64,000 nucleotides of DNA from Oceanispirochaeta sp. (GTDB taxonomy: Bacteria; Spirochaetota; Spirochaetia; DSM-2461). This document shows, piece after piece, positions 8,273-39,374 of the stretch (position 1 is its first letter; the number at the start of each line of letters is the position of its first letter). The DNA is taken from contig CAXXOA010000001.1 in assembly GCA_963666275.2 (NCBI GenBank), positions 1,024,001 to 1,088,000 on the forward strand, given 5' to 3'. The translations under genes were made by a program, and so were the position numbers. Below the pieces are notes generated by a model. It ran no database searches and had not been told where the DNA came from. It worked only from the letters and a program-made list of their open reading frames with translations.

Positions 8273-8301
8273 ACTTTAAAGAATACTGGAGAAAATGTCA
8301 A
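8273..8301 (-). promoter_or_regulatory. Sigma70-like promoter of the tRNA-Tyr/Thr pair
   Basis: TTGACA (8301-8296), 17-bp spacer, TAAAGT (8278-8273). Confidence 0.65.
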
Positions 8302-8512
8302 TAAATGGCTGGAAGAACAGGGATTGGGCAATATCGAATATCTCTGGTGTTAAGCTCAGGGGTATATTTTATCAAATCAGGATTTTGTTTGCTCCATGGA
8401 GTGAACCGCCTCCGGTCACAGCTTCGCTGTTGCTCGTTTATACTTCCGACCCGTGGAGACCCGCATACTCATTTGGTGTGGGGGGGAGGGTAAAAGCCTC
8501 GGGCTACCCGAT
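8296..8512 (+). mobile_element. Degenerate 3' remnant of a group IIC intron (end of RT ORF, domains V-VI) with a 40-bp insert in domain V
   Basis: Translates NKWLEEQGL.NI.YLWC; ends GGCTACCCGAT like the intact copies. Confidence 0.88.
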
Positions 8513-8552
8513 TTCTACAGCTTTTTCATAATTTGCTGAATTACTCCGTATT

Positions 8553-9392
8553 CTATAGGATTCTGGCACTCCCCCCCACTTGCACACTCTCTATATTGCC
8601 TTGATTATTAGTCACTTTTACAAATATTCTTGAAGGGAGATTCAAAGTATATCCTTGTTCAAACTCGAAAGAACGATCGTTATTATCATCGCTATATTTC
8701 GACAAATAACAGGCTAATGCTCCATTTGATGTTCCTGTTGCAGACTCCTCATCTATTCCATATCTTGGTGCAAAGTTTCTTGTATGTGCATCGGCCTCAT
8801 TTATTGATTCAAGGCAAAAAGCATGTATTCCAACAACATCATATTTTTCACTTATCTTAGAAATACAATTGCTATTGGCTTTAAGCTGATTTAATGTCTT
8901 TAAATTTCGTATTGGAAGAATAATATCCCGTAATCCTGTTGATACAATCTGGATTGGCAAATCCGCATAGAAGTCATTATGATCCATGCTAAAGCAATTC
9001 ATTAATTCTTTTCTATCTATAATATCACCGAATTTAGGAATATTTTGTTCCATATAAACAAGTTTATCATATATTTCAAGCTGTAATACTCCAGCTCTAG
9101 TCTCTTGAGTATAACGACCACTTTTGATCACATGAAGATCTCTTAATAAATTAAAAGTTGCGATTGTTGCATGACCGCATAAATCAACTTCAGAAACAGT
9201 AGTGAAAAATTTGACCTTGAAATCAGCATATAAAGATTTCATAATAAACGCTGTCTCAGAAAAGCCAATGTCTTTCGCAATATTTAGCATTTCGTTCTCT
9301 GATAATATATCTGCATCCAAGACCACGCCAGCAGGATTCCCTCCCATATTATTATATTGAAATGCAGATATTTTATAGATTTGTCTATTCAT
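8553..9392 (-). CDS. PhzF-family isomerase/epimerase (cassette 11)
   Basis: GGNPAGVV, FSETAF, EVDLCGHAT, EESATGTSNG. Confidence 0.92.
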   Translation of the reverse strand: MNRQIYKISAFQYNNMGGNPAGVVLDADILSENEMLNIAKDIGFSETAFIMKSLYADFKVKFFTTVSEVDLCGHATIATFNLLRDLHVIKSGRYTQETRAGVLQLEIYDKLVYMEQNIPKFGDIIDRKELMNCFSMDHNDFYADLPIQIVSTGLRDIILPIRNLKTLNQLKANSNCISKISEKYDVVGIHAFCLESINEADAHTRNFAPRYGIDEESATGTSNGALACYLSKYSDDNNDRSFEFEQGYTLNLPSRIFVKVTNNQGNIESVQVGGSARIL

Positions 9393-9445
9393 AGATCGGT
9401 CCTTATTATCAAGTGAAGGAAATCTTCAATCATATAACTATCCTT

Positions 9446-10150
9446 CTAGTTTGCATATTCCCTTAACCAACTAGTTATTTCTTTTTCGGAATGTAGGTAG
9501 TGCTCACCATTTTTTACTATTGTAAGAGTTGCACTATATTTATTTATAAAGGAATCTATTATATATCGTTCAGTAAGATTGTCCTTCTCACCGTAAATAA
9601 TATGTGATTCAGTGTACCATCCTGAGATTTTGTTTTCCCTTATATATGTTAAATATTGCCAAGAAAGGGTCTCTCCTATTGGTATTGCGATTTCTTTTTT
9701 GGTTTTAAGATCATTTTCTGAAACATTAAACCATCCCATCATATTTTTTATTAATGCTTCCATATCTAATATTGGGGACTCAAATAGGCTTTTTTTAATT
9801 TTATAGTTTTCAAATGCGACTAAGCTAAAGTATGCCCCGATACTTGAAGCATATATCGATATTTCATTCCATTTATTACTTGCAAAAGTATAAACATTTT
9901 TTAATTCAGGCACACAATTTTGAATTATAAACTCTTTATCATTATCTTTTCGTTCACCATGCTTTGGTAAATCAAAACTTATTACTTGAAATCCTTTATA
10001 ATTACCTTCTTCCGCTAATCTCTCAGCATATTCTTTATGACTATCCTTTCCATGAATATATATGTATACTCTATCTGATTTTTCCCCCCATATTATTGCT
10101 GGGATACCATGAATTATCTGTTTATCTTTTTTCATTCCTAGCCTATTCAT
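9446..10150 (-). CDS. Alpha/beta hydrolase (cassette 11)
   Basis: HG, SFDLPKHGER, ASSIGAY nucleophile elbow, GEKD, GEH. Confidence 0.85.
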   Translation of the reverse strand: MNRLGMKKDKQIIHGIPAIIWGEKSDRVYIYIHGKDSHKEYAERLAEEGNYKGFQVISFDLPKHGERKDNDKEFIIQNCVPELKNVYTFASNKWNEISIYASSIGAYFSLVAFENYKIKKSLFESPILDMEALIKNMMGWFNVSENDLKTKKEIAIPIGETLSWQYLTYIRENKISGWYTESHIIYGEKDNLTERYIIDSFINKYSATLTIVKNGEHYLHSEKEITSWLREYAN

Positions 10151-10440
10151 TCTTTTTCTTATTTAACTTTATTTAAGCGCCGAAGGCGTCAGCCTGACGA
10201 GACTGTAGAAACACTCTATTTGAATATTTTTCCCTCTTTTTAAAATAGAATTATTCAGAGAATTATTCATCTCTCCATTTACGAATTTCTATCCATTAAA
10301 CCCGCATATATTCCATTACAATTGAATATATCTCTTAAAACTTCCAATCTCATTGGTTCTTTCGTATTCCTACAGACTATACCGCTGAAATTTCCCGATA
10401 TTATGCACCATGCAATACCGTAACCATTATATTCTGAGTA

Positions 10441-10514
10441 TGCTTCCGACCCGTGCGGACCCGCATGCTCATTTGGTGTGGGGGCTGGAGCTTAAAAGCC
10501 TCGGGCTACCCGAT
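10441..10514 (+). mobile_element. Short group IIC intron 3' remnant (part of DV, plus DVI)
   Basis: CCGTGCGGACCCGCATGC..TGGTGTGGGGGCTGGAG..GGCTACCCGAT, followed by TTACGCAGA (R'' half of the TA cassette). Confidence 0.88.
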
Positions 10515-10532
10515 TTACGCAGATTTTAAATT

Positions 10533-10808
10533 TTATTTATATGCTTCATCATGAGACCCAATGCTTATGGGAATTATAGTATCATCTTGTATCAGGAACT
10601 CAACTGTAATTCGGTATGAAATATTAATTGATATGCTATATAACTCTGATAAATTACCTTTTAATTGATGTAAGCGTAGAGATGGGTGATTGGGGTTTAT
10701 TTCCATTAGCTGCAATGCCTTAGAATACTGTTTTTTTATCTCTGGGTGTTTTTTTAAGAATTTTGCAGCTTTTTTTTCGTAACTATGTGTAAATATAATT
10801 TTAGGCAT
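10533..10808 (-). CDS. RelE/ParE-superfamily toxin (cassette 10)
   Basis: HPSLRLHQLKG..SISINISYRI..IGSHDE; overlaps the antitoxin gene. Confidence 0.88.
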   Translation of the reverse strand: MPKIIFTHSYEKKAAKFLKKHPEIKKQYSKALQLMEINPNHPSLRLHQLKGNLSELYSISINISYRITVEFLIQDDTIIPISIGSHDEAYK

Positions 10809-11058
10809 CAGTTATTCTTTCTATATGGTCTTCTATACTACCGGTATAATATTTTCCTTCTTGTATATCTTTCTTAGCTTCAACCAATGCTGCTTCAAGT
10901 TCACATTCTCTTAAGCGGTTGTATTCATCCATTGAAAGAACAACATATTTACTTTTACCTCGGACAGTTATGACTGCTTCATTCTCCTCTGAGATGACTT
11001 GATCCAGAACAGATACACCTTTAACTTTCAAATCATTGGCTGTTATACTATTAAACAT
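10801..11058 (-). CDS. Phd/YefM-family antitoxin (cassette 10)
   Basis: ITANDLK..VITVRGKSKYVVLSMDEY. Confidence 0.88.
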   Translation of the reverse strand: MFNSITANDLKVKGVSVLDQVISEENEAVITVRGKSKYVVLSMDEYNRLRECELEAALVEAKKDIQEGKYYTGSIEDHIERITDA

Positions 11059-11254
11059 ATTGTTACCTCATTATTAATAGTACTATTAATTGTGCTGTCT
11101 ATCAATTGTTTAACAGTTATATTTTCATATATGTAAGAAAAGTATTTTAAACAACTTCGAAGCATAATCCTCCATCGGAGATTTGAATTTCCTGATAAAT
11201 TTTCTTTCTCTTTTCCAGTAATATCTTTAACGTAAAAAATAAACATTTAATTCT

Positions 11255-11365
11255 GTGTAACATTCTTTTCATTTGCAGACCGTAAACCTGGCGTGAAACT
11301 TGCCTGCGTAGCAGAAAAGCAGGTTTCATGACAGTAGGGCTGTCAATTGCAAAAGCAAGTTAAAT
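11255..11365 (-). other. attC site, intron-free (111 bp)
   Basis: On +: GTGTAAC...imperfect hairpin...GTTAAAT; the R'' matches the GTTAAATAG start of the ATPase cassette at 12672. Confidence 0.85.
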
Positions 11366-11386
11366 AGTGCCCTTAATGCGTTTTTG

Positions 11387-12598
11387 CTAATACAAGAATC
11401 CAAAGAGATGTAATGGGATCTCGTATCTGGATCCGTATAATATATCATCTTTTACTAAATAGCTGTTTTCTAAATTTTCCTTTATCTGTTTTCTGTCCTT
11501 ATTTTTTCCACCGACTTCAAAGAAGTTGTTCTGAATCTTAAAATCACCAATTCTGCTCATGTGAACTTTGAGATTGGCGTTTAAAGTCATTCTGATGAAA
11601 AATATTTCTCTCAATGTTCCAATATTGGATTCAAAGCCGATTTCTTCAGCTACAGATTTATATATGTCCGGATTATCAAGAAATATCTTTTCAGTCTGTT
11701 TAAGAACTGCTGATCCTGATTTGTCCATTGATAAAAGAGTAATCACTCCTGTCTCATGCAGTATATTCAGGTAATTCTGTATTGTTTTGTTATCAAGCCC
11801 AAGATTCTTGGCTATGCTGTTCCTGTTCAATTCTCCGGGGGGGATGGTTGCCAGATAGCTGATAATGCGTTTGAAATTTATCAAATTCTCAGTTTTCAAT
11901 TTATAGTGGTTGGATATATCCTCATAAATTGTCTTATCAATGATCCTTAAGATTTTCTGATTGTATGTGGAAATCCCTTCTTGAGCGAAAGGATAATACC
12001 CACACCCTAAATATTCTTTGAAATGACCCCTGAGTTTTGGCACATCGGCTATTTTCGATTCAAAGTTCGACCTATTGGAGATTAAGTCATTAATAGTAAT
12101 TATACCTGTATCAGCGATATCATTGAAAAGGAGATACTCTCTAAATGATAAACCACCAATTCTGTAAATAACTCCTCTTCTGGATAAATCATATGTACCC
12201 TTGATCAGATCAATGCTGGAACTTCCTGAGAAGATGATTTTAATGTCCGGGTAGGCATCATATATATTTTTTAATTCCTGGTTCCAGTTCGGGTATTTAT
12301 GTATTTCATCCAGGAAAAAGTATTTTATACCATTTTCTTCGTATAGATCATTCACAAAATCTATTAAATTGTTTTGGGTGAAATAAATATGGTCTATAGA
12401 TGCATATATAGCTTCGTCAGGATTTGATATATTTTCTTTGATGTATTGAAGTAATAATGTAGTCTTACCCGTACCTCTTGGGCCAATTAACCCTGTAAGT
12501 CGATTCTCTGTATTAAAACTATCAAATATGTATCGGTGGTGAGGGTAGTTAGTCTGACTGAGAAGTCGTTTATATATAGCGATAAAATTATTCTTCAT
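11387..12598 (-). CDS. AAA ATPase (AAA_14/DUF4143-like) (cassette 9)
   Basis: GPRGTGKTT Walker A, FFLDEIH Walker B, FSGSS. Confidence 0.88.
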   Translation of the reverse strand: MKNNFIAIYKRLLSQTNYPHHRYIFDSFNTENRLTGLIGPRGTGKTTLLLQYIKENISNPDEAIYASIDHIYFTQNNLIDFVNDLYEENGIKYFFLDEIHKYPNWNQELKNIYDAYPDIKIIFSGSSSIDLIKGTYDLSRRGVIYRIGGLSFREYLLFNDIADTGIITINDLISNRSNFESKIADVPKLRGHFKEYLGCGYYPFAQEGISTYNQKILRIIDKTIYEDISNHYKLKTENLINFKRIISYLATIPPGELNRNSIAKNLGLDNKTIQNYLNILHETGVITLLSMDKSGSAVLKQTEKIFLDNPDIYKSVAEEIGFESNIGTLREIFFIRMTLNANLKVHMSRIGDFKIQNNFFEVGGKNKDRKQIKENLENSYLVKDDILYGSRYEIPLHLFGFLY

Positions 12599-12665
12599 TG
12601 GAATATACTCTACCTATATGCGTCATAATTATGATTGTACTCCAATATAAATAAATTTCAAGTCT

Positions 12666-12836
12666 ATTTAACACCCAAATATGATGCGAAGCGGCCTGAC
12701 CGAAGGGCAGGTATAGGCGCTTTTCTTGCTCCTTTATTCTAAACACCAGTTCGTTATTTGAGAAGAACAATTACTTTATCGAAGCTATTTCTGCAAGAAA
12801 TGTGATCTATAGCTTCGACTGCATCATTTGTTATCC
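12666..12836 (-). other. Long attC site, intron-free, apparent 4-nt loss next to R''
   Basis: ATTTAAC...GTTATCC; close homologue of the attC at 32548. Confidence 0.8.
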
Positions 12837-13789
12837 AATTTTCTATATCTTGTCATTCTACCTTTACCTGAAGACACAATCCTCTTTTCTTCTAGTAATT
12901 GCTTTAAATCTCTGCTTGCTGTTGCACTAGATATACCTTTACAGACACTCATGTATTCTTTTCTATCAAACCAATCTTCTAGTTTTGATAAAGCTATTTT
13001 TGATCGTTTTTCATAATCAGGATTAACTGGTTTTGATTCATTAATTGTATTTCTTAGAGCTTCATTTATTACGTTCAACATGAATTCAATAAAAACAGTC
13101 GATTTTCCAGTATTATCCGATATTGATAACACTTTATAATACTCTTGCTGATTATCCTTAATTAACTTTTCTATTGGAACAAATTCAAATATCGGATTCA
13201 CATTCATCAATATCCGTGTTTGCCAAAATCTGCCCATACGACCATTTCCATCTTCAAAAGGGTGAATAAATTCCATTTCATAATGAAATACACAGCTTTT
13301 AATGATTTCTTGATCTTCATCGTGTTTTAAATATTGAAATAAATCTTTCATCAAACCTGGTACCATTTCTGAAGTAGGAGCAATATGTGTAACTTCTTTA
13401 CCTTTCATTATCCCAACTTGAGATTTTCGAAATTCACCAGGATTTGGAACTAAACCCTCCATTAAGATCCTATGTGCGTCTAAGAAATCTTTATTACTAT
13501 GTGGTTTAAAGGAATTTAATCGCTCATATGCGACAATTGCATTTTGAACTTCTAGAATATCTTTACTTGGGGCAATTATTCTTTGATTATCAATCAAGGC
13601 AGTAACATTCTCAATATTTAAAGTGTTACCTTCTATTGATAAGGATGATTGAATTGTTTTAATTCTATTTTGTCTTCTGAGTCTTGCTTCTGGTTTTACA
13701 AGCATTAAACTTTGGCAAATACCCAATCCTTCAGTTATTTGACCATATAATTTTAAAATTCGGTTTGTAATTTCATACGGTGGTTTCAT
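12824..13789 (-). CDS. Fic-domain protein (cassette 8)
   Basis: HPFEDGNGRMGR; C-terminal HTH (SSATASRDL). Confidence 0.93.
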   Translation of the reverse strand: MKPPYEITNRILKLYGQITEGLGICQSLMLVKPEARLRRQNRIKTIQSSLSIEGNTLNIENVTALIDNQRIIAPSKDILEVQNAIVAYERLNSFKPHSNKDFLDAHRILMEGLVPNPGEFRKSQVGIMKGKEVTHIAPTSEMVPGLMKDLFQYLKHDEDQEIIKSCVFHYEMEFIHPFEDGNGRMGRFWQTRILMNVNPIFEFVPIEKLIKDNQQEYYKVLSISDNTGKSTVFIEFMLNVINEALRNTINESKPVNPDYEKRSKIALSKLEDWFDRKEYMSVCKGISSATASRDLKQLLEEKRIVSSGKGRMTRYRKLDNK

Positions 13790-13853
13790 CTCTTAATGAT
13801 AGCATCATTTGATACTATCACCAACAGGTCATAAATATTCTGTGCCGAAGGCT

Positions 13854-14004
13854 GGATAACGTCCGGTTCTGTGGAATGCCGTTAAATGGCGCTTTTCTTG
13901 CTTTACTATGTTAACCAGCTTTTTCATAGCTAAAAATGCTTACCGAATTAATAATAAACCCAAAGCAAGAAATGTGACATAGGCATTTCCATAGCAACCG
14001 TTTG
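13854..14004 (-). other. attC site interrupted by intron A (rest of R'' at 15915-15920)
   Basis: GGATAAC...hairpin...TTTG | TTATGT. Confidence 0.85.
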
Positions 14005-15914
14005 GTACGCCTGACATGGCAATAAACTTATGAGTTGAAAGTCCACTACAGCTACCCACGTATAGTAAACATGCTATACCAACTGTTAGCCGACGGCAAG
14101 GGCAATTCCGTGAGGAATTGTCTGGAGGAAGCCTGAGTGCAAAACCGGGAGCCCATGTATAAGAATGTGATATGGAATGCGAGTCACGCAGCATTCCACC
14201 CCCCAGTTCCGGAGGCTGGTCGCAAACAAGTTTGCTGCTCGCCCATGCAGCCTAGGGCGAGTCAGCCAATGATGACGATGCCCCGTGGGTGAGGGATAGG
14301 GTAAATCACAGGGTTGTCCGGCCCTGGTCGTAAACTTCGCTTGCTGCTCGCCCATGCAACCGGGGCATAGTAGCCAACGCCCGGAGTAATGTCCGGTTCA
14401 TGGTGAAGGCCTGAACATTTCACAAGGAGGAGCCTTATGGTTCTCAAAGGAACAATTTCAGTTTATGCCGGAATCACTTTTGGCGGACCATGGAGAAACA
14501 AGCCTTGAACGAATCTATGATGGATTTGATTTTATCCTCTGAAAATATGCACAAAGCCTGGAAACAGGTCAAACGCAATGGAGGTAGCCCTGGAATCGAC
14601 GGTATCACTGTCGAGAAGTTTCCAGGATATCTGAAAACCAGATGGCCTAGAATCAAACGAGCTTTGCTCAACGGGTACTATGTACCTTCTCCGGTGCTGA
14701 GGGTAGAAATCCCGAAGAAATCCGGAGGCTGGTCGCAAACAAGTTTGCTGCTCGCCCATGCAACCGGGGGAAAACGGATGCTGGGAATCCCGACAGTTCT
14801 AGACAGGGTTATCCAGCAGGCTATTTCACAGGTTCTGAATCCCATATTTGATCCGGATTTCTCGGAGCATAGCTATGGATTCAGACCGGGAAGATCGGCT
14901 CACGGAGCAGTGAAACAGGTAAATCAACATGTCAAATCCGGGTATAGATACGCCGTGGATCTGGACTTGGAAAAGTTCTTTGATACAGTTAATCATGATA
15001 TCCTGATGCATTTTGTGGCTGTAAAAGTCTGGGACAAATCTGTCCTCAGACTCATCGGCCGTTACCTGAGAGCCGGTATTCAGTTGGACAATGGAAAAGT
15101 GATTCCTACAGACATCGGCACACCCCAAGGCGGGCCCTTATCACCTCTGCTTTCCAATATCCTCCTTGATCGGTTGGATATGGAACTGGAGAGAAGAAAT
15201 GTGAGGTTCGCACGGTATGCAGATGACACTATCCTTTTAACGAAGAGATTGTGTGATGCTAGGAAGATCCTACAGGAAGTTTCAATATTTCTGGTAAGGA
15301 AATTGAAATTGGTAGTGAATCAGGAGAAAACGAAAGTTGCAAAGATAAGGGAGTGCAGTTTCCTGGGATTCACATTCAAGGGTAAGAAGATTCGCTGGAC
15401 AGAGTCGTCCTTTGAGGATTTTCGGTATCATCTGAAATATCTGACAAGGCGTTCCTGGGGTGTTTCCATGGAATACAGAATCGGGAAACTCAATGAGTAT
15501 ATCCGGGGCTGGATGAACTACTATGGGATCTCCCAATATTACAGCCCTATACAGAATCTTGATGACTGGCTCCTTAGGAGGATTCGCATGTGCTACTGGA
15601 AACAGTGGCGATATCCCAGAACGAAAGTCAGGAAACTGATGGAACTGGGAATTCCGAAAGATTTTGCCATTATCACCGGTGCCAGTAGTAAATCCTATTG
15701 GCATCTCTCCAAGTCTTACGCTACCAATGCAGCTATGTCCAATAAATGGCTGGAAGAGCAGGGATTGGTCAATATCAAATATCTGTGGTGTAAAGCCCAG
15801 GGATATATCTGATCAAATCAGGATTTCGTTTGCTCCATGGAGTGAACCGCCCCGTGCGGACCCGCATGCGGGGTGGTGTGGGGGCTGGAGGTTAAAAGCC
15901 TCCGGCTACCCGAT
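14005..15914 (+). mobile_element. Group IIC-attC intron, species 1, copy A (internally deleted ribozyme)
   Basis: GTACG 5' end, CCCGAT 3' end; about 230 bp present in the other copies is replaced near 14322-14365. Confidence 0.92.
14490..15812 (+). CDS. ltrA: Group II intron RT/maturase without endonuclease domain, with 14-aa insert
   Basis: GTPQGGPLSP, RYADD, domain X. Confidence 0.95.
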   Translation: MEKQALNESMMDLILSSENMHKAWKQVKRNGGSPGIDGITVEKFPGYLKTRWPRIKRALLNGYYVPSPVLRVEIPKKSGGWSQTSLLLAHATGGKRMLGIPTVLDRVIQQAISQVLNPIFDPDFSEHSYGFRPGRSAHGAVKQVNQHVKSGYRYAVDLDLEKFFDTVNHDILMHFVAVKVWDKSVLRLIGRYLRAGIQLDNGKVIPTDIGTPQGGPLSPLLSNILLDRLDMELERRNVRFARYADDTILLTKRLCDARKILQEVSIFLVRKLKLVVNQEKTKVAKIRECSFLGFTFKGKKIRWTESSFEDFRYHLKYLTRRSWGVSMEYRIGKLNEYIRGWMNYYGISQYYSPIQNLDDWLLRRIRMCYWKQWRYPRTKVRKLMELGIPKDFAIITGASSKSYWHLSKSYATNAAMSNKWLEEQGLVNIKYLWCKAQGYI

Positions 15915-15922
15915 TTATGTGG

Positions 15923-16786
15923 TCAATTATTTATTACCAAGTATTCAGTCAAACATAATTGATCATTCTTTTTTCCAATAACAAATAAGATATTTCTTTC
16001 AAAGTCATAATCTATAGAATATATTCTAGTTTCTTCTGAATTTATATTTTCCATTTTTGTTATACCTTCATCAATATTATAAAGCTTGAAATTGTTAATG
16101 CAAGAAGTTAGAAAACGATTATTACCAATATAAACAGCAGATGTTATAAGTTCTTTTTCATCTATTTTATACTTGTCTTCATTATTAGTTATATAATATT
16201 CATATCCTTTATACGGAATATTAATCCCATAAATGAAGTCTTTTGAATTTAATTTATGATCAAAAACCATTAATTCATTTTCTGTAATAACTGTCTCACA
16301 AAAGCCTGAAATTAATGAGTATTTTTGGATCTTTACTTTTTTTTCTCCAGGAAAATATCTCTCAATAAAAAAAGATGTATCAGTATCCCAGAAAATATTC
16401 CTAATGATTAAGAGTTCATCTTTACTTGTAATTAAAGCATCCAAATTTGAATCCAATCTATTCTCTTCAACTAAAGTAATTCCAGAGAACCAACCCGAAT
16501 GCCCTGAAATAAACAATAATGAATTATCCATGAAACTCATGCTAAAGATTGATAGTTCATCAGGAATAAGTGAGCTTATATTATTCCTTTCACCATTTTC
16601 ATCATAAAAATAGAGAGAATGCCCCATCGAAATATAAAAACCATTATTAGTTCCTGAAACAAGTAGTGGTAATCCTTCTCTATTGAAATAGAATTCATCA
16701 ATTTTCTGTAGTTCTAATGAATATAAATTTGTAAATATCAATATGACTAATAAATATGTAATTGCTTTTTTCATCATTAATTCCAT
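15923..16786 (-). CDS. Secreted protein, putative immunity partner (cassette 7)
   Basis: Signal-peptide-like MMKKAITYLLVILIFTNLYS; start overlaps the upstream stop (TAATG). Confidence 0.6.
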   Translation of the reverse strand: MELMMKKAITYLLVILIFTNLYSLELQKIDEFYFNREGLPLLVSGTNNGFYISMGHSLYFYDENGERNNISSLIPDELSIFSMSFMDNSLLFISGHSGWFSGITLVEENRLDSNLDALITSKDELLIIRNIFWDTDTSFFIERYFPGEKKVKIQKYSLISGFCETVITENELMVFDHKLNSKDFIYGINIPYKGYEYYITNNEDKYKIDEKELITSAVYIGNNRFLTSCINNFKLYNIDEGITKMENINSEETRIYSIDYDFERNILFVIGKKNDQLCLTEYLVINN

Positions 16787-17844: not shown

Positions 17845-18128
17845 TACTAATCTCCCCAAATAATGATTTCTTGTTTTACATTTAGTAATTTACGTCATTA
17901 ATATATATTGATTCTTTTAATGATTCTTGTCACTAGATAATATGAATTGTTTTTCTTACAAATAACCCATTTTCTTCGTAGCATAATCCTCCACCGGAGG
18001 TTTCTTCCCAATTTTTCTCCCACTGGGGTTTCTTTCTATTTCATACTTATTCTTCCATCCGGCGGAAGAAATCTAATTCTATCCGTATAGTGTAACATAC
18101 AAAGGTGTATAATGAACAGCCGTAACCC

Positions 18129-27893: not shown

Positions 27894-27913
27894 TTTACCT
27901 CATACCTTTGTAC

Positions 27914-30005: not shown

Positions 30006-30050
30006 TTATGTCGCCTCCATCTACCATCAATTTTATCATTTATGTTATGT

Positions 30051-31736
30051 CTAAATTGCCTCGAAAAATATCAACTCTACATCGTAGCCAATCATATCTA
30101 ATCTTTCGTAGAACATATTTAAATTTATCTTACTAAATAATGGAATTGAAAAACTTCCACTTCTATCCTTTTTTGTTATGATACCATATGCAATAATATA
30201 GTTGCTTTTATCAAAACGGTCTAAAGTTGAAAAATGAAGTACTGTATTTGAGATTATAGTATTGGCCTCAATCCTAAAATTCTTATCGTTTAATCTTTCA
30301 CCAGAAACAAGTCCTTGGCTAAACAAATGACTTAATGCACTTGAACCATATTTGAATTTATTATGTAGTAATACAATTTTTCCATTTTCTTTAAAAATCA
30401 CATCACAAATTTCAGTTTTCTTTATAAGTTTTGTATCTAGAAGATCTGCATCATATGAGTTTTTCAAAAATGATGATAAATCTGAGTTATAAACGAATTC
30501 TTTATTCTTATTTTGTTTTTTTGCCTTAAGCCCAATTGCAGATATATTATATGGAAAACTAATATTACGACTTTGACTGATAATGCTTTGATATTTTGCA
30601 TCTACAACTGATATAAAATCATTATTTACTTTGTACCAAACCCCACTTTCTATAAAATAATGTGTATTTTGGTGATTTATATCAAAATAAAGACATTGAT
30701 ATACCTTTTGGGAGAATCTATCTCTATTTGTATTTATATCAACAGCAATTACCTGTTGTCTTTTTATATCATCGACTGATAATGTTAAGTTTTGAACTTT
30801 CGGATAATACTGATCGATTATGTCTAACTCTGGATATCTTGATGTATCAGACCGTCTGGGGGTAATACTTGAATAGCGATAGTAAATTGGTGCATTTTTA
30901 TCTAGGGTTTCAGGAAATGAGAGTAATATGTTTTGATTTTTCTTATTTAATTCATCGACTAATAATTCATCAAGCTTTGAAATCAATCCTTTATCCTTTA
31001 TGATTCGGAAATTATCTACCCAATCAAAACCTTTCCTTCTATAGTCATCAAGTTGATACTTTTCTATTAACATATTAACTATTGATAACAGCTCACTCGA
31101 ATCTCCTGAGTATGAAAACTTAATACTATCTGCACCATCAATATTCTTAAAATAGTCTTCAAATTCGGCTTTTACTTTTCCAGCAATATTTTTTAGTAAT
31201 GAGTTATATATATTTATTTCGTACTCATCAAATTTCGTTTGTTTTCCTGATTGTTTTCTTGTACGTAAAGCTATTTCAGATGGTGTAAATAGATCGGCTG
31301 ATTTTATTTTCTCTTCATCTAATAAGTTTAATGCTGTTTTCAATCCGAAATCATATTCTATTGCTATGGGATTAATTAAAAAGCGGCCGTGCCCATGTGC
31401 AATAATTACTTTTTTTCCATTTATCTCTTTCAAGATAATTAAATCCGTTGATTTATTTTCTAGATTTGGTTCTGGAATTTGCCAAAAATCTTTCCACCAA
31501 GGATTTGGATTATCAGAATTACGGTAATAAACATTATGTGTTGAGGTCGACTTATGAATCGGCCTAAATTCTATTTTTCTATCCACTAGGAATCTATGTA
31601 TTAAGTTGTCATTATTTGTTGAGACACCATTATTGAAGACGCTTCTATTGTTTACAATTACTGAGCTATTCTGAACAGAATATCGTTCATTAAAATTATA
31701 TCCATCTTTTACGAGGTAAATAGTAAATCTAGGCAT
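30051..31736 (-). CDS. DUF6119/TIGR04141-like sporadically distributed protein (cassette 3)
   Basis: DFGLKTALN, EICD..H.K..GSSALSHLFSQG.VS, IPLFSKINL. Confidence 0.78.
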   Translation of the reverse strand: MPRFTIYLVKDGYNFNERYSVQNSSVIVNNRSVFNNGVSTNNDNLIHRFLVDRKIEFRPIHKSTSTHNVYYRNSDNPNPWWKDFWQIPEPNLENKSTDLIILKEINGKKVIIAHGHGRFLINPIAIEYDFGLKTALNLLDEEKIKSADLFTPSEIALRTRKQSGKQTKFDEYEINIYNSLLKNIAGKVKAEFEDYFKNIDGADSIKFSYSGDSSELLSIVNMLIEKYQLDDYRRKGFDWVDNFRIIKDKGLISKLDELLVDELNKKNQNILLSFPETLDKNAPIYYRYSSITPRRSDTSRYPELDIIDQYYPKVQNLTLSVDDIKRQQVIAVDINTNRDRFSQKVYQCLYFDINHQNTHYFIESGVWYKVNNDFISVVDAKYQSIISQSRNISFPYNISAIGLKAKKQNKNKEFVYNSDLSSFLKNSYDADLLDTKLIKKTEICDVIFKENGKIVLLHNKFKYGSSALSHLFSQGLVSGERLNDKNFRIEANTIISNTVLHFSTLDRFDKSNYIIAYGIITKKDRSGSFSIPLFSKINLNMFYERLDMIGYDVELIFFEAI

Positions 31737-31844
31737 ACATCCTCCAATAAACTGCTAAACAATATTGTCTTTCTATTTGCCCTTTGTCGACATAACGCAT
31801 TCCTTAACACAAATATTTGTATAGAATGTATTTAACAGCTAATT

Positions 31845-32465
31845 TTATCTTAGCCTGTCAAAGCTTTCTGCTAGCCAGTAATCCTTAAAAACCAATGATA
31901 ATAATTGCTCAGGAATTTCATCCGATATTTTTACAAATGAAATTTCCCAATATTCAATCCCATTAGAATTATCAAGGTTAAAATTATATAATCGCCCAGA
32001 ATCAATCTCTTTTTCGTTATATTGCATGTAAATATCATAATCATAAGAGAAGTCCCTATAATGTGTAACTGGTTTCGTCGGGAATCTCATAATCATTTTC
32101 GAATCGGTGATTATTCTTTGATTAATACTTGTTTCTGAAAGATTACCAGGAGATAAAGTCGCTTGATCTTCAAATATTTGATGCATCTCATTAGCGGAAA
32201 ATTGAAAAATAGCGACAACTGTATGAAAATCTTCATATTTATAACGGTAGTAATCTTCTAATTGAGGATGACATACATGATTGTAAACTAAAAAAACGTT
32301 CTGTATACCTGCCAAATCAAAATTCAACTTCCCTTCAGATCTCATCTGATAAAATTTCTGAAGACTTTCGTCACTAATGACATAGAGTCCATTAACATTT
32401 TGTGCAGATAAATAATTTGATAGAATTATTGAGAATGTGATGAATAATAATATACTTCTTTTCAT
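31845..32465 (-). CDS. Secreted hypothetical protein (cassette 3)
   Basis: Signal-peptide-like N-terminus; GGAGAG RBS. Confidence 0.7.
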   Translation of the reverse strand: MKRSILLFITFSIILSNYLSAQNVNGLYVISDESLQKFYQMRSEGKLNFDLAGIQNVFLVYNHVCHPQLEDYYRYKYEDFHTVVAIFQFSANEMHQIFEDQATLSPGNLSETSINQRIITDSKMIMRFPTKPVTHYRDFSYDYDIYMQYNEKEIDSGRLYNFNLDNSNGIEYWEISFVKISDEIPEQLLSLVFKDYWLAESFDRLR

Positions 32466-32547
32466 ATATATCTCTCTCCAAAATTATTTTATATTTTCCA
32501 TATTTCACAAAAACTAATTTCTTGAACAAACACGGTACTTTCTGTCG

Positions 32548-32713
32548 ACATAACACCAAAATATGCTGCGAAGCGACCTGGCTTGCCAGGTATAGGCGCT
32601 TTTCTTGCACCTTTATTCTAAACAGCAATTCCTTTTTTGAGAAGGACAATTCCTTTGACGAAGCCGTTTCTGCAAGAAATGTGATCTATAGCTTCGACTG
32701 CATCATTTTTTTG
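32548..32713 (-). other. Long attC site (~172 bp reconstituted) interrupted by intron E
   Basis: ACATAAC...branched hairpin...TTTG | TTATGC (34703). Confidence 0.85.
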
Positions 32714-34702
32714 GTACGCCCGACATGGCAATAAACTTATGAGGTGAAAGTCCTCTACAGCTACCCACGTATAGTAAACATGCTATACCAACTGTTAGCC
32801 GACGGCAAGGGCAATTCCGTGAGGAATTGTCTGGAGGAAGCCTGAGTGCAAAACCGGGAGCCCATGTACAAGAATGTGATAGAAGGCCCAGTTCTGGAGG
32901 TGAGTCAGCCAATGATGACGATGCCCCGTGGGTGAGGGATAGGGTAAATCACAGGGTTGTCCGGGGAATGTTTATTGTCTTATTCGGGGAGATCTGTCTG
33001 CAAGGCGGTAACGGCGGTTTGACCGTGAGAATCCGGAGGATACCGGGGTAATAAATCCAAGCCTATCAGGGGATGACACTCTGATAAGGAGCCGTTTATA
33101 CGGAACACAAAGAAGTCGTCACAGCGATTCAAACCGGATGATACAGCGTCAGCAGGAGTAATTCTACTGATAAGCAGACAGAAGTCAGCAGAAGGCATAG
33201 TAGCCAACGCCCGGAGTAATGTCCGGTTCATGGTGAAGGTCTGAACATTTCACAAGGAGGAGCCTTATGGTTCTCAAAGGAACAATTTCAGTTTATGCCG
33301 GAATCACTTTTGGCGGACCATGGAGAAACCAGCCTTGAACGAATCTATGATGGATTTGATTTTATCCTCTGAAAATATGCACAAAGCCTGGAAACAGGTC
33401 AAACGCAATGGAGGTAGCCCTGGAATCGACGGTATCACTGTCGAGAAGTTTCCAGGATATCTGAAAACCAGATGGCCTAGAATCAAACGAGCTTTGCTCA
33501 ACGGGTACTATGTACCTTCTCCGGTGCTGAGGGTAGAAATCCCGAAGAAATCCGGAGGAAAACGGATGCTGGGAATCCCGACAGTTCTAGACAGGGTTAT
33601 CCAGCAGGCTATTTCACAGGTTCTGAATCCCATATTTGATCCGGATTTCTCGGAGCATAGCTATGGATTCAGACCGGGAAGATCGGCTCACGGAGCGGTG
33701 AAACAGGTAAATCAACATGTCAAATCCGGGTATAGATACGCCGTGGATCTGGACTTGGAAAAGTTCTTTGATACAGTTAATCATGATATCCTGATGCATT
33801 TTGTGGCTGTAAAAGTCTGGGACAAATCTGTCCTCAGACTCATCGGCCGTTACCTGAGAGCCGGTATTCAGTTGGACAATGGAAAAGTGATTCCTACAGA
33901 CATCGGCACACCCCAAGGCGGGCCCTTATCACCTCTGCTTTCCAATATCCTCCTTGATCGGTTGGATATGGAACTGGAGAGAAGAAATGTGAGGTTCGCA
34001 CGGTATGCAGATGACACTATCCTTTTAACGAAGAGATTGTGTGATGCTAGGAAGATCCTACAGGAAGTTTCAATATTTCTGGTAAGGAAATTGAAATTGG
34101 TAGTGAATCAGGAGAAAACGAAAGTTGCAAAGATAAGGGAGTGCAGTTTCCTGGGATTCACATTCAAGGGTAAGAAGATTCGCTGGACAGAGTCGTCCTT
34201 TGAGGATTTTCGGTATCATCTGAAATATCTGACAAGGCGTTCCTGGGGTGTTTCCATGGAATACAGAATCGGGAAACTCAATGAGTATATCCGGGGCTGG
34301 ATGAACTACTATGGGATCTCCCAATATTACAGCCCTTTACAGAACCTTGATGACTGGCTCCGTAGGAGGATTCGCATGTGTTACTGGAAACAGTGGCGAT
34401 ATCCCAGAACGAAAGTCAGGAAACTGATGGAACTGGGGATTCCGAAAGATTTTGCCATTATCACCGGTGCCAGTAGTAAATCCTATTGGCATCTCTCCAA
34501 GTCTTACGCTACCAATGCAGCTATGTCCAATAAATGGCTGGAAGAGCAGGGATTGGTCAATATCAAATATCTGTGGTGTAAAGCCCAGGGATATATCTGA
34601 TCAAATCAGGATTTCGTTTGCTCCATGGAGTGAACCGCCCCGTGCGGACCCGCATGCGGGGTGGTGTGGGGGCTGGAGGTTAAAAGCCTCCGGCTACCCG
34701 AT
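32714..34702 (+). mobile_element. Group IIC-attC intron, species 1, copy E (1989 bp)
   Basis: GTACG...CCCGAT. Confidence 0.95.
33320..34600 (+). CDS. ltrA: Group II intron RT/maturase (426 aa)
   Basis: YADD. Confidence 0.95.
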   Translation: MEKPALNESMMDLILSSENMHKAWKQVKRNGGSPGIDGITVEKFPGYLKTRWPRIKRALLNGYYVPSPVLRVEIPKKSGGKRMLGIPTVLDRVIQQAISQVLNPIFDPDFSEHSYGFRPGRSAHGAVKQVNQHVKSGYRYAVDLDLEKFFDTVNHDILMHFVAVKVWDKSVLRLIGRYLRAGIQLDNGKVIPTDIGTPQGGPLSPLLSNILLDRLDMELERRNVRFARYADDTILLTKRLCDARKILQEVSIFLVRKLKLVVNQEKTKVAKIRECSFLGFTFKGKKIRWTESSFEDFRYHLKYLTRRSWGVSMEYRIGKLNEYIRGWMNYYGISQYYSPLQNLDDWLRRRIRMCYWKQWRYPRTKVRKLMELGIPKDFAIITGASSKSYWHLSKSYATNAAMSNKWLEEQGLVNIKYLWCKAQGYI

Positions 34703-34809
34703 TTATGCCTCTCTATTCTACGAGGTAAATTAATAATGCACAAATAAATTCATTTGGTAATTATTGTAAAAGGCAAAGATGTTTCAGTGACGCATCATAT
34801 AAATTTTTG

Positions 34810-35337
34810 TTATGTGCTGAACCGTTCACGCGTTATATCAAGCAGTTGTGTAACAGGTATCTTCTCATTAGTCTCATCATTGAAAACATATTCATCTACC
34901 ATTCTATCGATAAACAAAACCCCATCTAAATGGTCAATTTCATGTTGAAAGCACCGAGCCATTTGATCATTTGTCACAATTATATGAAAATCTCCGAATC
35001 TATCCTGATATTTGACTGTTATTTCTTTATAGCGAATGACCTTTCCCCAAAAACCTGGCAGCGAAAGACATCCTTCAAGATCTGATTGTTCTCCTGATTT
35101 CTCCAATATTTCAGGATTAATTAATTCATAATGCTCTCCCATATAATCAATCACTGTTATTCTTTTTAAAATAGATATTTGTGGTGCTGCCAGTGCTGCA
35201 CCACCAGCGTGATTTCTTAATGTATTTGATATAATATCAATCTTATTGTGTAGTCCTTTATGAAATATATTGATAAGCGAACATTGAGCTCTTAAACGAC
35301 TATCTCCGAATAGTATAATATTTCTTTGTTTACTCAT
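34810..35337 (-). CDS. def: Peptide deformylase (cassette 2)
   Basis: GAALAAPQ, EGCLS, HEIDHLDG; start uncertain (35337, 35355 or 35373). Confidence 0.92.
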   Translation of the reverse strand: MSKQRNIILFGDSRLRAQCSLINIFHKGLHNKIDIISNTLRNHAGGAALAAPQISILKRITVIDYMGEHYELINPEILEKSGEQSDLEGCLSLPGFWGKVIRYKEITVKYQDRFGDFHIIVTNDQMARCFQHEIDHLDGVLFIDRMVDEYVFNDETNEKIPVTQLLDITRERFST

Positions 35338-35433
35338 ATAAAGTCTATCCTTCATGTCTAAACGGCTTTGCACATAACGTCCAAGACTATACTAAGTATT
35401 TACCAAATAGGGGTAAATATCCAGCTCTTGTAG

Positions 35434-35528
35434 GCATAACACCGACTTAAGTAGCAGACCGTTAGCTGGCGCACTTTTTGCGGATAGCAAAAATGTGTGA
35501 CAGTAGGGCTGACTACTTCAAGTCAATG
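35434..35528 (-). other. attC site interrupted by intron F
   Basis: GCATAAC acc GACTT AAGTAG...CTACTT c AAGTC aat G | TTATGT (37560), with extrahelical bases. Confidence 0.9.
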
Positions 35529-37559
35529 GTACGCCTGACATGGCAATAAACTTATGAGGTGAAAGTCCTCTACAGCTACCCACGTATAGTAAACATGCTA
35601 TACCAACTGTTAGCCGACGGCAAGGGCAATTCCGTGAGGAATTGTCTGGAGGAAGCCTGAGTGCAAAACCGGGAGCCCATGTACAAGAATGTGATAGAAG
35701 GCCCAGTTCTGGAGGTGAGTCAGCCAATGATGACGATGCCCCGTGGGTGAGGGATAGGGTAAATCACAGGGTTGTCCGGGGAATGTTTATTGTCTTATTC
35801 GGGGAGATCTGTCTGCAAGGCGGTAACGGCGGTTTGACCGTGAGAATCCGGAGGATACCGGGGTAATAAATCCAGGCCTATCAGGGGATGACACTCTGAT
35901 AAGGAGCCGTTTATACGGAACACAAAGAAGTCGTCACAGCGATTCAAACCGGATGATACAGCGTCAGCAGGAGTAATTCTACTGATAAGCAGACAGAAGT
36001 CAGCAGAAGGCATAGTAGCCAACGCCCGGAGTAATGTCCGGTTCATGGTGAAGGTCTGAACATTTCACAAGGAGGAGCCTTATGGTTCTCAAAGGAACAA
36101 TTTCAGTTTATGCCGGAATCACTTTTGGCGGACCATGGAGAAACCAGCCTTGAACGAATCTATGATGGATTTGATTTTATCCTCTGAAAATATGCACAAA
36201 GCCTGGAAACAGGTCAAACGCAATGGAGGTAGCCCTGGAATCGACGGTATCACTGTCGAGAAGTTTCCAGGATATCTGAAAACCAGATGGCCTAGAATCA
36301 AACGAGCTTTGCTCAACGGGTACTATGTACCTTCTCCGGTGCTGAGGGTAGAAATCCCGAAGAAATCCGGAGGCTGGTCGCAAACAAGTTTGCTGCTCGC
36401 CCATGCAACCGGGGGAAAACGGATGCTGGGAATCCCGACAGTTCTAGACAGGGTTATCCAGCAGGCTATTTCACAGGTTCTGAATCCCATATTTGATCCG
36501 GATTTCTCGGAGCATAGCTATGGATTCAGACCGGGAAGATCGGCTCACGGAGCGGTGAAACAGGTAAATCAACATGTCAAATCCGGGTATAGATACGCCG
36601 TGGATCTGGACTTGGAAAAGTTCTTTGATACAGTTAATCATGATATCCTGATGCATTTTGTGGCTGTAAAAGTCTGGGACAAATCTGTCCTCAGACTCAT
36701 CGGCCGTTACCTGAGAGCCGGTATTCAGTTGGACAATGGAAAAGTGATTCCTACAGACATCGGCACACCCCAAGGCGGGCCCTTATCACCTCTGCTTTCC
36801 AATATCCTCCTTGATCGGTTGGATATGGAACTGGAGAGAAGAAATGTGAGGTTCGCACGGTATGCAGATGACACTATCCTTTTAACGAAGAGATTGTGTG
36901 ATGCTAGGAAGATCCTACAGGAAGTTTCAATATTTCTGGTAAGGAAATTGAAATTGGTAGTGAATCAGGAGAAAACGAAAGTTGCAAAGATAAGGGAGTG
37001 CAGTTTCCTGGGATTCACATTCAAGGGTAAGAAGATTCGCTGGACAGAGTCGTCCTTTGAGGATTTTCGGTATCATCTGAAATATCTGACAAGGCGTTCC
37101 TGGGGTGTTTCCATGGAATACAGAATCGGGAAACTCAATGAGTATATCCGGGGCTGGATGAACTACTATGGGATCTCCCAATATTACAGCCCTATACAGA
37201 ATCTTGATGACTGGCTCCGTAGGAGGATTCGCATGTGCTACTGGAAACAGTGGCGATATCCCAGAACGAAAGTCAGGAAACTGATGGAACTGGGAATTCC
37301 GAAAGATTTTGCCATTATCACCGGTGCCAGTAGTAAATCCTATTGGCATCTCTCCAAGTCTTACGCTACCAATGCAGCTATGTCCAATAAATGGCTGGAA
37401 GAGCAGGGATTGGTCAATATCAAATATCTGTGGTGTAAAGCCCAGGGATATATCTGATCAAATCAGGATTTCGTTTGCTCCATGGAGTGAACCGCCCCGT
37501 GCGGACCCGCATGCGGGGTGGTGTGGGGGCTGGAGGTTAAAAGCCTCCGGCTACCCGAT
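35529..37559 (+). mobile_element. Group IIC-attC intron, species 1, copy F (2031 bp)
   Basis: GTACG...CCCGAT. Confidence 0.95.
36135..37457 (+). CDS. ltrA: Group II intron RT/maturase with 14-aa insert
   Basis: YADD. Confidence 0.95.
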   Translation: MEKPALNESMMDLILSSENMHKAWKQVKRNGGSPGIDGITVEKFPGYLKTRWPRIKRALLNGYYVPSPVLRVEIPKKSGGWSQTSLLLAHATGGKRMLGIPTVLDRVIQQAISQVLNPIFDPDFSEHSYGFRPGRSAHGAVKQVNQHVKSGYRYAVDLDLEKFFDTVNHDILMHFVAVKVWDKSVLRLIGRYLRAGIQLDNGKVIPTDIGTPQGGPLSPLLSNILLDRLDMELERRNVRFARYADDTILLTKRLCDARKILQEVSIFLVRKLKLVVNQEKTKVAKIRECSFLGFTFKGKKIRWTESSFEDFRYHLKYLTRRSWGVSMEYRIGKLNEYIRGWMNYYGISQYYSPIQNLDDWLRRRIRMCYWKQWRYPRTKVRKLMELGIPKDFAIITGASSKSYWHLSKSYATNAAMSNKWLEEQGLVNIKYLWCKAQGYI

Positions 37560-39314
37560 TTATGTCTTATCTTCAATTAATAATGAATCTTTAACGATCT
37601 CGACATAATTAACTTTGTCTTTTTTTAAATCTTTCAAATATTGGTCTAGCTTCATTTTATAAATAAACAAAATATCATTTATATTGTAATTATTTTTAAG
37701 ATCTTTAGAGATACAAGTAAGAATTACATCATAATAATAGTGTAGATTTTCAATCAATGTTTCCAATTGATACGGTGTCTTTCCTGAGTGAACAATAAGG
37801 TTTCTAGCACGATAAATTCTTTTAATCTGCCAGTGAACTCTTTTAATATGATTTTCAACAATTCTGGACAATTTTTTCCCATCTTTAAAAATATCAGAAT
37901 AATACTTGATTCTTTCCTGAAGTAAAATGTTATTATCTAGAAGACTAATAATCTCAGAGTATTCTGAAACTTCATCACCTCTGATTAGAATTTTGATTAC
38001 AGCAATGTTATTAAACTTATCAATTCGTTTTAGTGCTTGATTTAACTTATTTTTATTTATTGAGTTATCAATAGATTGTCTAATATTATTAACAATCTTA
38101 AAAACATAATTGTCTGTTATGATAGGAATTATTGACTCTGACAATTGTTCAATCTTAGCCTTATCTCCTTTTGTTATTATTGGAATAAGAACTTCAATTC
38201 CACTCCATAAATTAATTAATTGATTTTCATATGATGATGACTTAATTGCAGAAAAATGATTTTGAATTGATAAATCTACACGCTGTTGGGAATTTGGATC
38301 AATTTTCTGATTTGCAAAAGGATAAAGCAATTTTTCAAAAGATTTTTCAAATGAAACTTTATTTATTTTATCTGGTCTTCGAAAAATAGGACTTACAATG
38401 TCATTTACTAAATAGTTGTTTCCTTTCTCATTAAATACAATTGCTTTACTACTAATACTGAAATTATCTTTATGTACTAAGAAACAGGAATTTGAATAAA
38501 TACTTTCAAGAATATATCTTGCCTTAATATAAGCTTTAAATCTATCTAAAGATTCAAATTTAAATTTGTAATAAGTTTTACTCTTTTTGAAGAAATTTTG
38601 GTTAATCCGATCTGATAAATCAATATCTGTTTGAGAAATATCTTCAATTAATTCAACGAAATCATTATTAAGAAATTTCTTAATTTTTCTTATATCTTTA
38701 CTAACTTCAATATAAACAATGAAATCCTTACTTTCCAAATCAAATTCATCTATAAAAGCTATGTAAGATTCAATATTTTTTACTTTTTTCTGTTGAAAAA
38801 TTATATCCAGTGTTAAGTTTATGAATTCTGTTGAGTAACCAAAAGCTTTAAGCTGAATTAAAAGATATTTTGTTAATCGTCTAATTTCTTCATAATTCTT
38901 TGAAATAATATTTTCTTTTAAAAGTTCGACTATCGTTTGGTAATAAATACTGTCAAGTTTTCTTTTTATAAATGAAAAATAATTTTTAAGTTCGTTAATT
39001 GACATTTTAGAGTTTAGCTTTGAAATTAGTGAATTATAATTTATTCCAAAAACCTTTTTTACTACTGAGTCTTTTATCACAATGTCTTGTAATTCATTTA
39101 CAATGCTTTTAATTGCATTTTCATTAATCATTTCAGCTTCAATATGTTCGATAGTCTTTATTGCTTCATCTAAAAGAGTTATAAAATTGTGGGCTGGAAG
39201 TTTGAAACTATCTATTGTGTAATAAAATAAAAGTTCTTCAGAAATCTGATAAAAATAGAGCAATCCAATATTTGCATCTTTATTATCCCAGTTGTCAATA
39301 TTCTTTTCTTTCAT
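37560..39314 (-). CDS. ApeA-like HEPN-domain protein (cassette 1)
   Basis: LINLWSGIE.L..IYRARNLIVHSG (RxxxxH); stop overlaps R''. Confidence 0.7.
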   Translation of the reverse strand: MKEKNIDNWDNKDANIGLLYFYQISEELLFYYTIDSFKLPAHNFITLLDEAIKTIEHIEAEMINENAIKSIVNELQDIVIKDSVVKKVFGINYNSLISKLNSKMSINELKNYFSFIKRKLDSIYYQTIVELLKENIISKNYEEIRRLTKYLLIQLKAFGYSTEFINLTLDIIFQQKKVKNIESYIAFIDEFDLESKDFIVYIEVSKDIRKIKKFLNNDFVELIEDISQTDIDLSDRINQNFFKKSKTYYKFKFESLDRFKAYIKARYILESIYSNSCFLVHKDNFSISSKAIVFNEKGNNYLVNDIVSPIFRRPDKINKVSFEKSFEKLLYPFANQKIDPNSQQRVDLSIQNHFSAIKSSSYENQLINLWSGIEVLIPIITKGDKAKIEQLSESIIPIITDNYVFKIVNNIRQSIDNSINKNKLNQALKRIDKFNNIAVIKILIRGDEVSEYSEIISLLDNNILLQERIKYYSDIFKDGKKLSRIVENHIKRVHWQIKRIYRARNLIVHSGKTPYQLETLIENLHYYYDVILTCISKDLKNNYNINDILFIYKMKLDQYLKDLKKDKVNYVEIVKDSLLIEDKT

Positions 39315-39330
39315 AATTATTCCTATATAG

Positions 39331-39374
39331 ACATAACATAACTTATTATGCTGTTCAGTATAATAATACTGAAC
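39331..39374 (-). other. attI region; crossover G|TTATGT at 39337/39336
   Basis: GTTATGTCT matches the cassette 1 R'' at 37560; adjacent to intI; no attC hairpin. Confidence 0.8.

Follow-up and report, generated by a model that had tools for sequence, protein, structure and literature searches.

Group IIC-attC introns such as S.ma.I2, G.s.I1, Sh.ba.I2 and N.e.I1 encode a class C intron-encoded protein (IEP) and are inserted in the R'' box of integron attC sites, antisense to the gene cassettes (PMC3001079; PMC7923331); PMC3001079 calls the rarity of attC-targeting introns in integrons perplexing and leaves their role open. IS1111-attC elements are likewise mobile, attC-targeting and antisense to the cassettes but are DNA transposons with neither ribozyme nor reverse transcriptase (RT; PMC3001079). 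Here we describe a 31-kb array in a 64,000-nt window of the Oceanispirochaeta sp. assembly GCA_963666275.2 (contig CAXXOA010000001.1, positions 1,024,001 to 1,088,000), which is a sedentary chromosomal integron where group IIC-attC introns occupy the R'' of most of its attC sites. The probable reason for this saturation is the placement of the attC bottom strands on the lagging-strand template, through which almost all sites that match exon-binding site 1 (EBS1) of the intron have been filled. The dependence of occupancy on orientation is a correlation, from which we infer the cause.

All nine junctions at which a preliminary description had placed introns or remnants are exact intron 3' ends (…ACCCGAT), six of them with a matching 5' end (GTACGCC; Table 1). 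The introns all lie on the plus strand and the cassette open reading frames (ORFs) on the minus strand, so that the introns run antisense to the cassettes. They comprise six whole-length introns (1910-2031 bp), among which the copy at 14005 has lost part of domains I-III, a 702-bp part adjacent to an IS3-family insertion sequence (IS), and two tails of 69 and 217 bp, both with a broken domain V. Intron-derived DNA amounts to 12,912 of 31,042 bp (41.6%), in agreement with the earlier estimate of about 13 kb. The earlier tally of nine occupied junctions among 11, all antisense, also stands, though only six carry whole-length introns: it combines six occupied attC sites, three remnants without an attC and two empty sites. 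Occupancy would be 9 of ~15 if four further attC-like traces (near 9431, 31791, 35372 and 34735-34815), which fold poorly and were missed by our covariance model, were counted.

The integron integrase IntI is an open frame of 407 aa (39487-40710, plus strand) that scores 389 bits against TIGR02249 (cut-off 265), retains all catalytic motifs (R-K-H-R-H-Y) and lies beside attI and the co-oriented attC cassettes. It is the only match above that cut-off in the whole source genome (hereafter G000, with contigs C1, C2 and C3; congeners are G001, G002, G003, G004, G006 and G008). The cassette genes, all on the minus strand, span the region from attI (crossover 39337) to tRNA-Tyr/Thr at 8055-8219. The covariance model, trained on 15 attC arms (seven from the window), finds eight attC sites here, six with an intron directly after them and two empty; the empty site at 12666 was outside the training set yet was detected at E 3.6e-11. 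Core hexamers at the two cassette ends are exactly complementary in 8/9 testable cassettes, as integrase-inserted circles should show. For the cassette promoter Pc, no minus-strand consensus promoter was listed within 39250-39560. The chromosomal intI, attI, attC array and satellite arrays are all shared with sedentary chromosomal integrons as characterized in PMC5371416. G000 has five attI copies for its one integrase, the satellite arrays bearing their own (C1:1288087, C2:1179975, C3:205218 and C3:279775).

The group IIC-attC identity proposed earlier holds, given the R'' insertion on the attC bottom strand, an IEP without endonuclease and a class C ribozyme. The 426-aa IEP exceeds the TIGR04416 cut-off, contains only RVT_1 and GIIM domains and carries the YADD motif. 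The ribozyme matches Rfam RF02001 and RF01998 and has class C domain I motifs and GUNYG...AY ends, with domain V-VI folds at z -4.7 and -5.7 and a bulged A in domain VI; the GUACGCC 5' end is that of G.s.I1 and Sh.ba.I2. An attC hairpin precedes the intron, the pairing of EBS1 with its intron-binding site (IBS1) is short, and the 3' exon starts with T at 17/18 intron ends. Two lineages are present, type A and the single-copy (in G000) type B, whose IEPs are 73% identical. The named sequences nearest to them (79-84% identical) come from Spirochaetaceae and Spirochaetia assemblies, and together these form a 100/100 clade in an IEP tree of 27 rows (partial hits below 330 aa left out; one Firmicutes-type outgroup clade). 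This clade falls with two class 1 integron attC introns, whose IEPs are 50-52% identical to those in the window, with a 100/100 split from Firmicutes-type IIC introns. The terminator-targeting introns of Firmicutes share the ribozyme class, recognition by hairpin plus EBS1, lagging-strand bias and high copy numbers (PMC8919778) but belong to a separate IEP clade and insert after terminators rather than attC.

A normal attC hairpin reappears once the introns are removed in silico, which also reveals that each type inserts antisense at its own fixed base: G/TT for type A and GTTA/T for type B, compared with TTGT/T in the two class 1 references. The consensus target TTGT/T reported for IIC-attC introns describes a majority and not a rule (PMC7923331); neither type uses it (TTG/T for type A), in which they differ from the class 1 references and from most deltaproteobacterial relatives. 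These differing registers are explained by the EBS1 loop, which is complementary to the 5' exon of its own intron: CAAU with NTTG in type A, UAAC with GTTA in type B, and ACAA with TTGT and ACCA with TGGT in two relatives. This covariation of loop and exon shows as pairing at all of the first three positions in 20 of the 22 introns (most of them type A) whose loop was found among 52 examined, versus a mean of 13.5 and a maximum of 18 with shuffled exons. On a 12.5-kb Desulfocapsaceae contig (L046), three co-oriented intron 3' ends in the TGGT/T register possibly mark another crowded array. Separately, at C1:1295356, C2:1166314-1166478 and L121 13216-13306, an attC is followed at TTG/ by a non-intron end, ATACT, probably of an IS using the same position.

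Over its whole genome, G000 has 18 intron 3' ends, which fall into four arrays, and 25 attC hits, which fall into five. Since dnaA (C2:470385) coincides with the GC-skew minimum at 471579, the G-rich strand can be read as leading-strand sequence and replication polarity is fixed. In all four intron-bearing arrays, which are spread over three contigs, the attC bottom strand is on the G-rich strand and thus on the lagging template. The remaining array, at C1:1290222-1304916 and 230 kb away from the window, is reversed; none of its six attC sites is occupied, although four carry TTG/T, and no intron sequence was found in it. In the lagging arrays (19 sites after one weak, IS-followed C2 hit was dropped), type A fills 10/12 sites offering at least three of four EBS1 pairs and 0/7 sites offering fewer (Fisher p 0.0007; 0.003 with three identical cassettes counted once), while type B sits on one of the seven that type A cannot pair with. 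Among good targets, excluding sites before the IS-like end (one in the reversed control array, one in G003), 10/12 are filled on the lagging template versus 0/4 in the reversed array (p 0.008). Length by itself was ruled out as the cause of an attC being empty, as the long sites at 32548 and 13854 both carry introns.

A comparable contrast exists at an unrelated locus of the congener G003, where 4/4 recognisable attC sites of the main array are occupied versus 2/17 in three leading-template satellites; GC skew in the flanks of this main array is +0.052 over 120 kb and +0.060 over 80 kb. In three other congeners (G002, G006 and G008), whose genomes yielded no group II RT, the main array lies on the leading template, as judged for G006 from the position of dnaA and a weak skew. 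Intron-free congeners carry TTG/T at 48/53 attC sites checked, so the empty non-target sites of G000 look like survivors. Prior work also offers a rationale for this pattern: attC bottom strands fold more often on the lagging template (PMC5371416), class C introns are strongly strand-biased (PMC8919778) and IIC IEPs without endonuclease exploit lagging strands at replication forks (PMC10190682). An endonuclease-less IIC intron would thus find folded, single-stranded attC hairpins on the lagging template. In 25/30 sedentary integrons the orientation is the opposite one, which avoids exposing bottom strands in this way; the window integron belongs to the minority of 5/30 in that study, which makes no mention of introns (PMC5371416).

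Several observations weigh against an orientation-driven saturation. Two good lagging targets are empty in G000, two leading-template sites are occupied in G003, and on the left side of the G003 main array the skew in the nearest 40 kb is -0.016. The G004 main array looks lagging yet is 0/4 occupied, with only one tail in the genome; a lagging satellite of G002 is 0/8 occupied; and in G001 1/4 sites are occupied in a probably lagging array and 1/3 in a probably leading one, an orientation read from 20 kb of skew only. G001 and G004 are fragmented and fit poorly, and no whole intron was found in G001, G004 or G002. Because of these arrays, orientation is at best necessary and not sufficient. 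Furthermore, the p-values overstate the case because sites within one array are not independent, the independent sample being five arrays in G000 and four in G003, and GC skew itself gives the wrong sign in 1/124 80-kb and 12/256 40-kb windows of G000. Finally, the introns, antisense as they are to the cassettes, would need sense transcripts to spread.

Alternatively, orientation could be coincidental, with occupancy depending instead on how old an array is, how near it lies to an active donor or how it is transcribed locally in antisense, as the small number of independent arrays and the poor fit of G001 and G004 might suggest. We consider this very unlikely, since introns occur on three G000 contigs and are absent from the reversed array only 230 kb away, and since G003 repeats the contrast at a different locus. 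The introns could also have multiplied at the DNA level, through recombination, gene conversion or joint movement of cassette and intron following a few retrohoming events. Consistent with this, the five whole type-A copies, which differ pairwise by 6-34 substitutions, are mosaic, with two difference blocks occurring in all four haplotype combinations; this demonstrates DNA-level sequence exchange between copies. In addition, an allele with a broken domain V, unable to retrohome, occurs at three G000 junctions and once in G003, there at the corresponding toxin-antitoxin cassette. Such a route seems improbable as the main source of copies, however, because the attC flanks of whole copies are precise and unrelated and their exons match EBS1, and because G003 has five identical copies, implying on sequence grounds recent mobility there, one of which follows a terminator outside any array. 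Nor do the occupied duplicates of a G003 cassette have private variants in common, which may also speak against joint movement of cassette and intron. Insertion into lagging-template hairpins thus remains our preferred account.

The post-terminator G003 copy (L030:9526) is identical to the array copies and lies after a terminator hairpin, a targeting also kept by known group IIC-attC introns; no such copy was found in G000. The duplicated G003 cassette is an ORF-less unit of 224 bp (L029:13225-13450 and five other places), the first in its main array, and two of its six copies are intron-occupied. Internally deleted mini-introns that keep both ends occur at L032:1876-2112 and L034:10122-10702. 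A repeat of ~42 nt, with kin elsewhere in the genome (some in tandem), interrupts intron copies at CCGG sites. It keeps the reading frame of the RT gene (+14 aa) at 14729-14770, 19079-19120 and 36374-36415 and in two C3 copies, and is also present in domain I (14216-14249 and 14325-14365) and in domain V of a tail (8410-8450).

Collapsed or misjoined 2-kb repeats might in principle produce such an array, particularly as no single read spans it and cassette depths are uneven in sample contigs. Mis-assembly is nevertheless unlikely, to the point of being nearly negligible as an explanation: the copies are distinct, their flanks unique and the cassette ends matched, and for every listed cassette there are short-read contigs (one sample, three runs, perhaps those behind the assembly) that cross into intron ends, in most cases by only 23-29 letters, thereby supporting the intron-cassette junctions, though not the order of units. 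The longest intron contig has a depth of 45-87 versus 2-15 for cassettes, and G003 shows the same pattern. Its architecture is that of the window: next to its IntI lie nine 3' ends belonging to an intron that is 81% identical; besides the four occupied attC sites, its main array has five more 3' ends. The two integrons share no flanking genes, and descent from one locus common to the congeners was rejected.

With the exact 3'-end pattern, G000 has 17 matches and G003 has 14, whereas none of 27 further family members exceeds 4. In a class-wide scan G000 had 16, and each of the 160 other genomes had no more than 3, which were dispersed (G003 fell outside this draw), although fragmented assemblies would hide intron repeats. 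Among 80 GTDB loci of related IEPs, those of at least 9 kb or with several ends had at most 3 co-oriented 3' ends per locus, and no close IntI was found at the 80, many of which are short contigs. The G000 and G003 assemblies consist of 3 and 4 contigs, and in G017 intron pieces lie at contig ends.

The preliminary description also proposed that the array is frozen, since splitting R'' from the rest of attC would block IntI excision. That conclusion is too broad and its reasoning slightly off the mark: the intron leaves both arms of the L box, R' and the G of R'' together on one of its sides, so that the attC hairpin still forms, with the first intron bases replacing R''. A mismatch is instead predicted to matter. 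At the five type-A sites AAC now faces GGT, so that the middle pair is lost (an A.G mismatch at position 2), and the outer R-box pairs go from 0.83-1.0 to 0.08-0.9; at the type-B site AAC still faces GTT, with values of 0.78-0.80 versus 0.52-0.54 when the intron is removed. For attC-aadA7, recombination with attI1 fell from 2.2e-3 to 6e-6 when position 2 was mismatched (PMC2811028), a figure obtained with IntI1 and a change on the AAC side, the opposite strand from here, which weakens the parallel. Type-A junctions are thus predicted to be largely dead, with excision by IntI strongly lowered at each, while type B is predicted to leave its site functional. Block excision and new insertion would still be possible because attI, the type-B site and two empty attC sites (one of which folds poorly) remain and attI and IntI look intact, leaving the array only partly frozen. 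Copy recombination together with IS3/IS66 deletions may meanwhile erode or rearrange it independently of IntI, with homologous recombination between copies as a possible route of cassette loss. The short-read contigs contain no joint that precisely removes an intron, but rare variants are dropped from contigs, which makes this uninformative. A joint suggesting an alternative first cassette at attI was rejected as the satellite attI copy at C3:279775, and a joint of 12829 with 14001 as the paralogous attC at 32548.

Interference with read-through transcription, also suggested earlier, is plausible by analogy with S.ma.I2, which lowers downstream expression by 72%; the same intron, however, has internal outward promoters that drive the next cassette, among them P1out in domain I (~66-119; PMC3001079). 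Whole copies in the window may similarly dampen read-through from Pc while each supplies a weak outward promoter to the next cassette. Both types contain a candidate, carried by each whole copy and falling in the published range, TTGCC(G/T)-N17-TAGCAT, at intron positions 65-95 (TTGCCG-N17-TAGCAT at 67-95, minus strand, in the reference type A copy), near the position of the weak mapped promoter of G.s.I1 (TTGCCG-N16-TACCCT at 73-100). Against this proposal, the candidate matches 8/12 consensus bases, below the scanner threshold, so that the likeness is positional, and its -35 overlaps conserved ribozyme sequence; generic promoter scans of both introns gave no excess over shuffles (4 vs 2.9; 1 vs 2.5).

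Locked cassettes with promoters of their own raise the question of selected domestication, in which the host keeps introns that secure useful cassettes and give each a promoter. The cargo includes Tin-like, SoFic-like, PDC-S01-like, DUF4365 and toxin-antitoxin genes, two species each retain an intron tail at one and the same cassette, outward promoters (Pout) function in related introns (PMC3001079) with the same candidate in types A and B, and a lagging orientation, which raises excision (PMC5371416), might make locking worthwhile. We nonetheless regard domestication as unlikely, given that target match and orientation explain occupancy without selection, that many copies are decaying or IS-hit, that type B does not lock, and that three congeners keep arrays without any group II RT.

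Table 1. Features of the integron array in window coordinates, ordered from attI towards the tRNA genes.
Feature	Position	Strand	Remarks
attI core	39331..39362	-	crossover G/TTATGT at 39337; from sequence and blastn
Cassette 1	37560..39336	-	584-aa ORF, no family
Type A intron, whole	35529..37559	+	440-aa IEP, in-frame 42-nt insert
attC bottom strand, occupied	35434..35528	+	R' to G of R''; 5' exon end AATG
Cassette 2	34703..35433	-	peptide deformylase gene between internal core sites
Type A intron, whole	32714..34702	+	426-aa IEP
attC, long type, occupied	32548..32713	+	intron at 32714 directly after
Cassette 3	30006..32547	-	206-aa ORF and DUF6119/TIGR04141 protein
Type A intron, whole, reference copy	28017..30005	+	EBS1 loop GCCAAUGA; YADD; domain V-VI fold z -4.7
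attC, occupied	27914..28016	+	intron at 28017 directly after
Cassette 4	26319..27913	-	524-aa ORF, no family
Type A intron, 3' 702 bp	25617..26318	+	5' part and attC gone, beside IS3
IS3-family element	24311..25616	-	39-nt terminal inverted repeats, no target duplication
Cassette 3' remnant	24119..24310	-	80% like a C2 cassette bearing a type A intron
Type B IIC-attC intron, whole	22145..24118	+	EBS1 loop GCUAACGA; insertion GTTA/T
attC, occupied by type B	22049..22144	+	R box AAC/GTT kept
Cassette 6	20265..22048	-	Tin-like and DUF4365 genes
Type A intron, whole	18234..20264	+	440-aa IEP
attC, occupied	18129..18233	+	intron at 18234 directly after
Cassette 7	15915..18128	-	gp19 tail-tube/M23 fusion and 287-aa ORF
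Type A intron	14005..15914	+	both ends kept; deletion and small inserts in 5' RNA domains
attC, long type, occupied	13854..14004	+	intron at 14005 directly after
Cassette 8	12831..13853	-	Fic (SoFic-like) gene
attC, empty	12666..12836	+	type A target TTTG/T good; L box folds poorly in model
Cassette 9	11360..12665	-	AAA_14/DUF4143 (PDC-S01-like) gene
attC, empty	11255..11365	+	without type A target (CAAG/T)
Cassette 10	10515..11254	-	Phd/YefM-RelE toxin-antitoxin pair
Intron tail, 69 bp	10446..10514	+	domain V broken
Distal block	8513..10445	-	hydrolase-like and PhzF-family genes
Intron tail, 217 bp	8296..8512	+	domain V broken and interrupted by small repeat; abuts tRNA-Tyr/Thr

Among the cassettes (Table 1), cassette 10 is 91% identical to the G003 cassette carrying the same intron tail. 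Defence-like cargo lies at 11387-13789 and 20274-22032 (PDC-S01-like ATPase, SoFic-like, Tin-like and DUF4365 genes), and in one cassette gene (16786-17859) a T4 gp19/contractile-injection tube domain and an M23 peptidase are fused. Cassettes 2 and 3 appear nested or fused, with an inner gene (peptide deformylase and DUF6119, respectively) between matched core sites whose attC stems have decayed. The IS3-family element probably adjoins a deletion.

Earlier work had already described this kind of intron, its antisense orientation, the loss of read-through and Pout. Our literature search found nothing on near-complete occupancy, orientation-dependent occupancy or excision of intron-bearing cassettes, though key 2008-2009 papers may cover part of this. 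The evidence supports the window array as a real, extreme variant of a known system, correlational as to cause and partly frozen. G000 holds built-in controls, namely both array orientations, target and non-target attC sites, and two registers with opposite predicted R-box effects, which make orientation gating of invasion, recombination of occupied attC sites and takeover of expression by intron promoters testable. Since the high-count genomes G000 and G003 are those assembled in few contigs, short-read assemblies may hide such arrays. More tentatively, and with less probability than the account of the window itself, replication orientation could decide whether an integron is overrun by attC introns, the leading-template bias of sedentary integrons being partly a defence that explains the scarcity of such introns. 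An overrun array would then switch regime: type A would shut IntI excision off site by site, intron promoters would drive the cassettes, which recombination among intron copies would reshuffle, and type B would ride on a still-excisable cassette.

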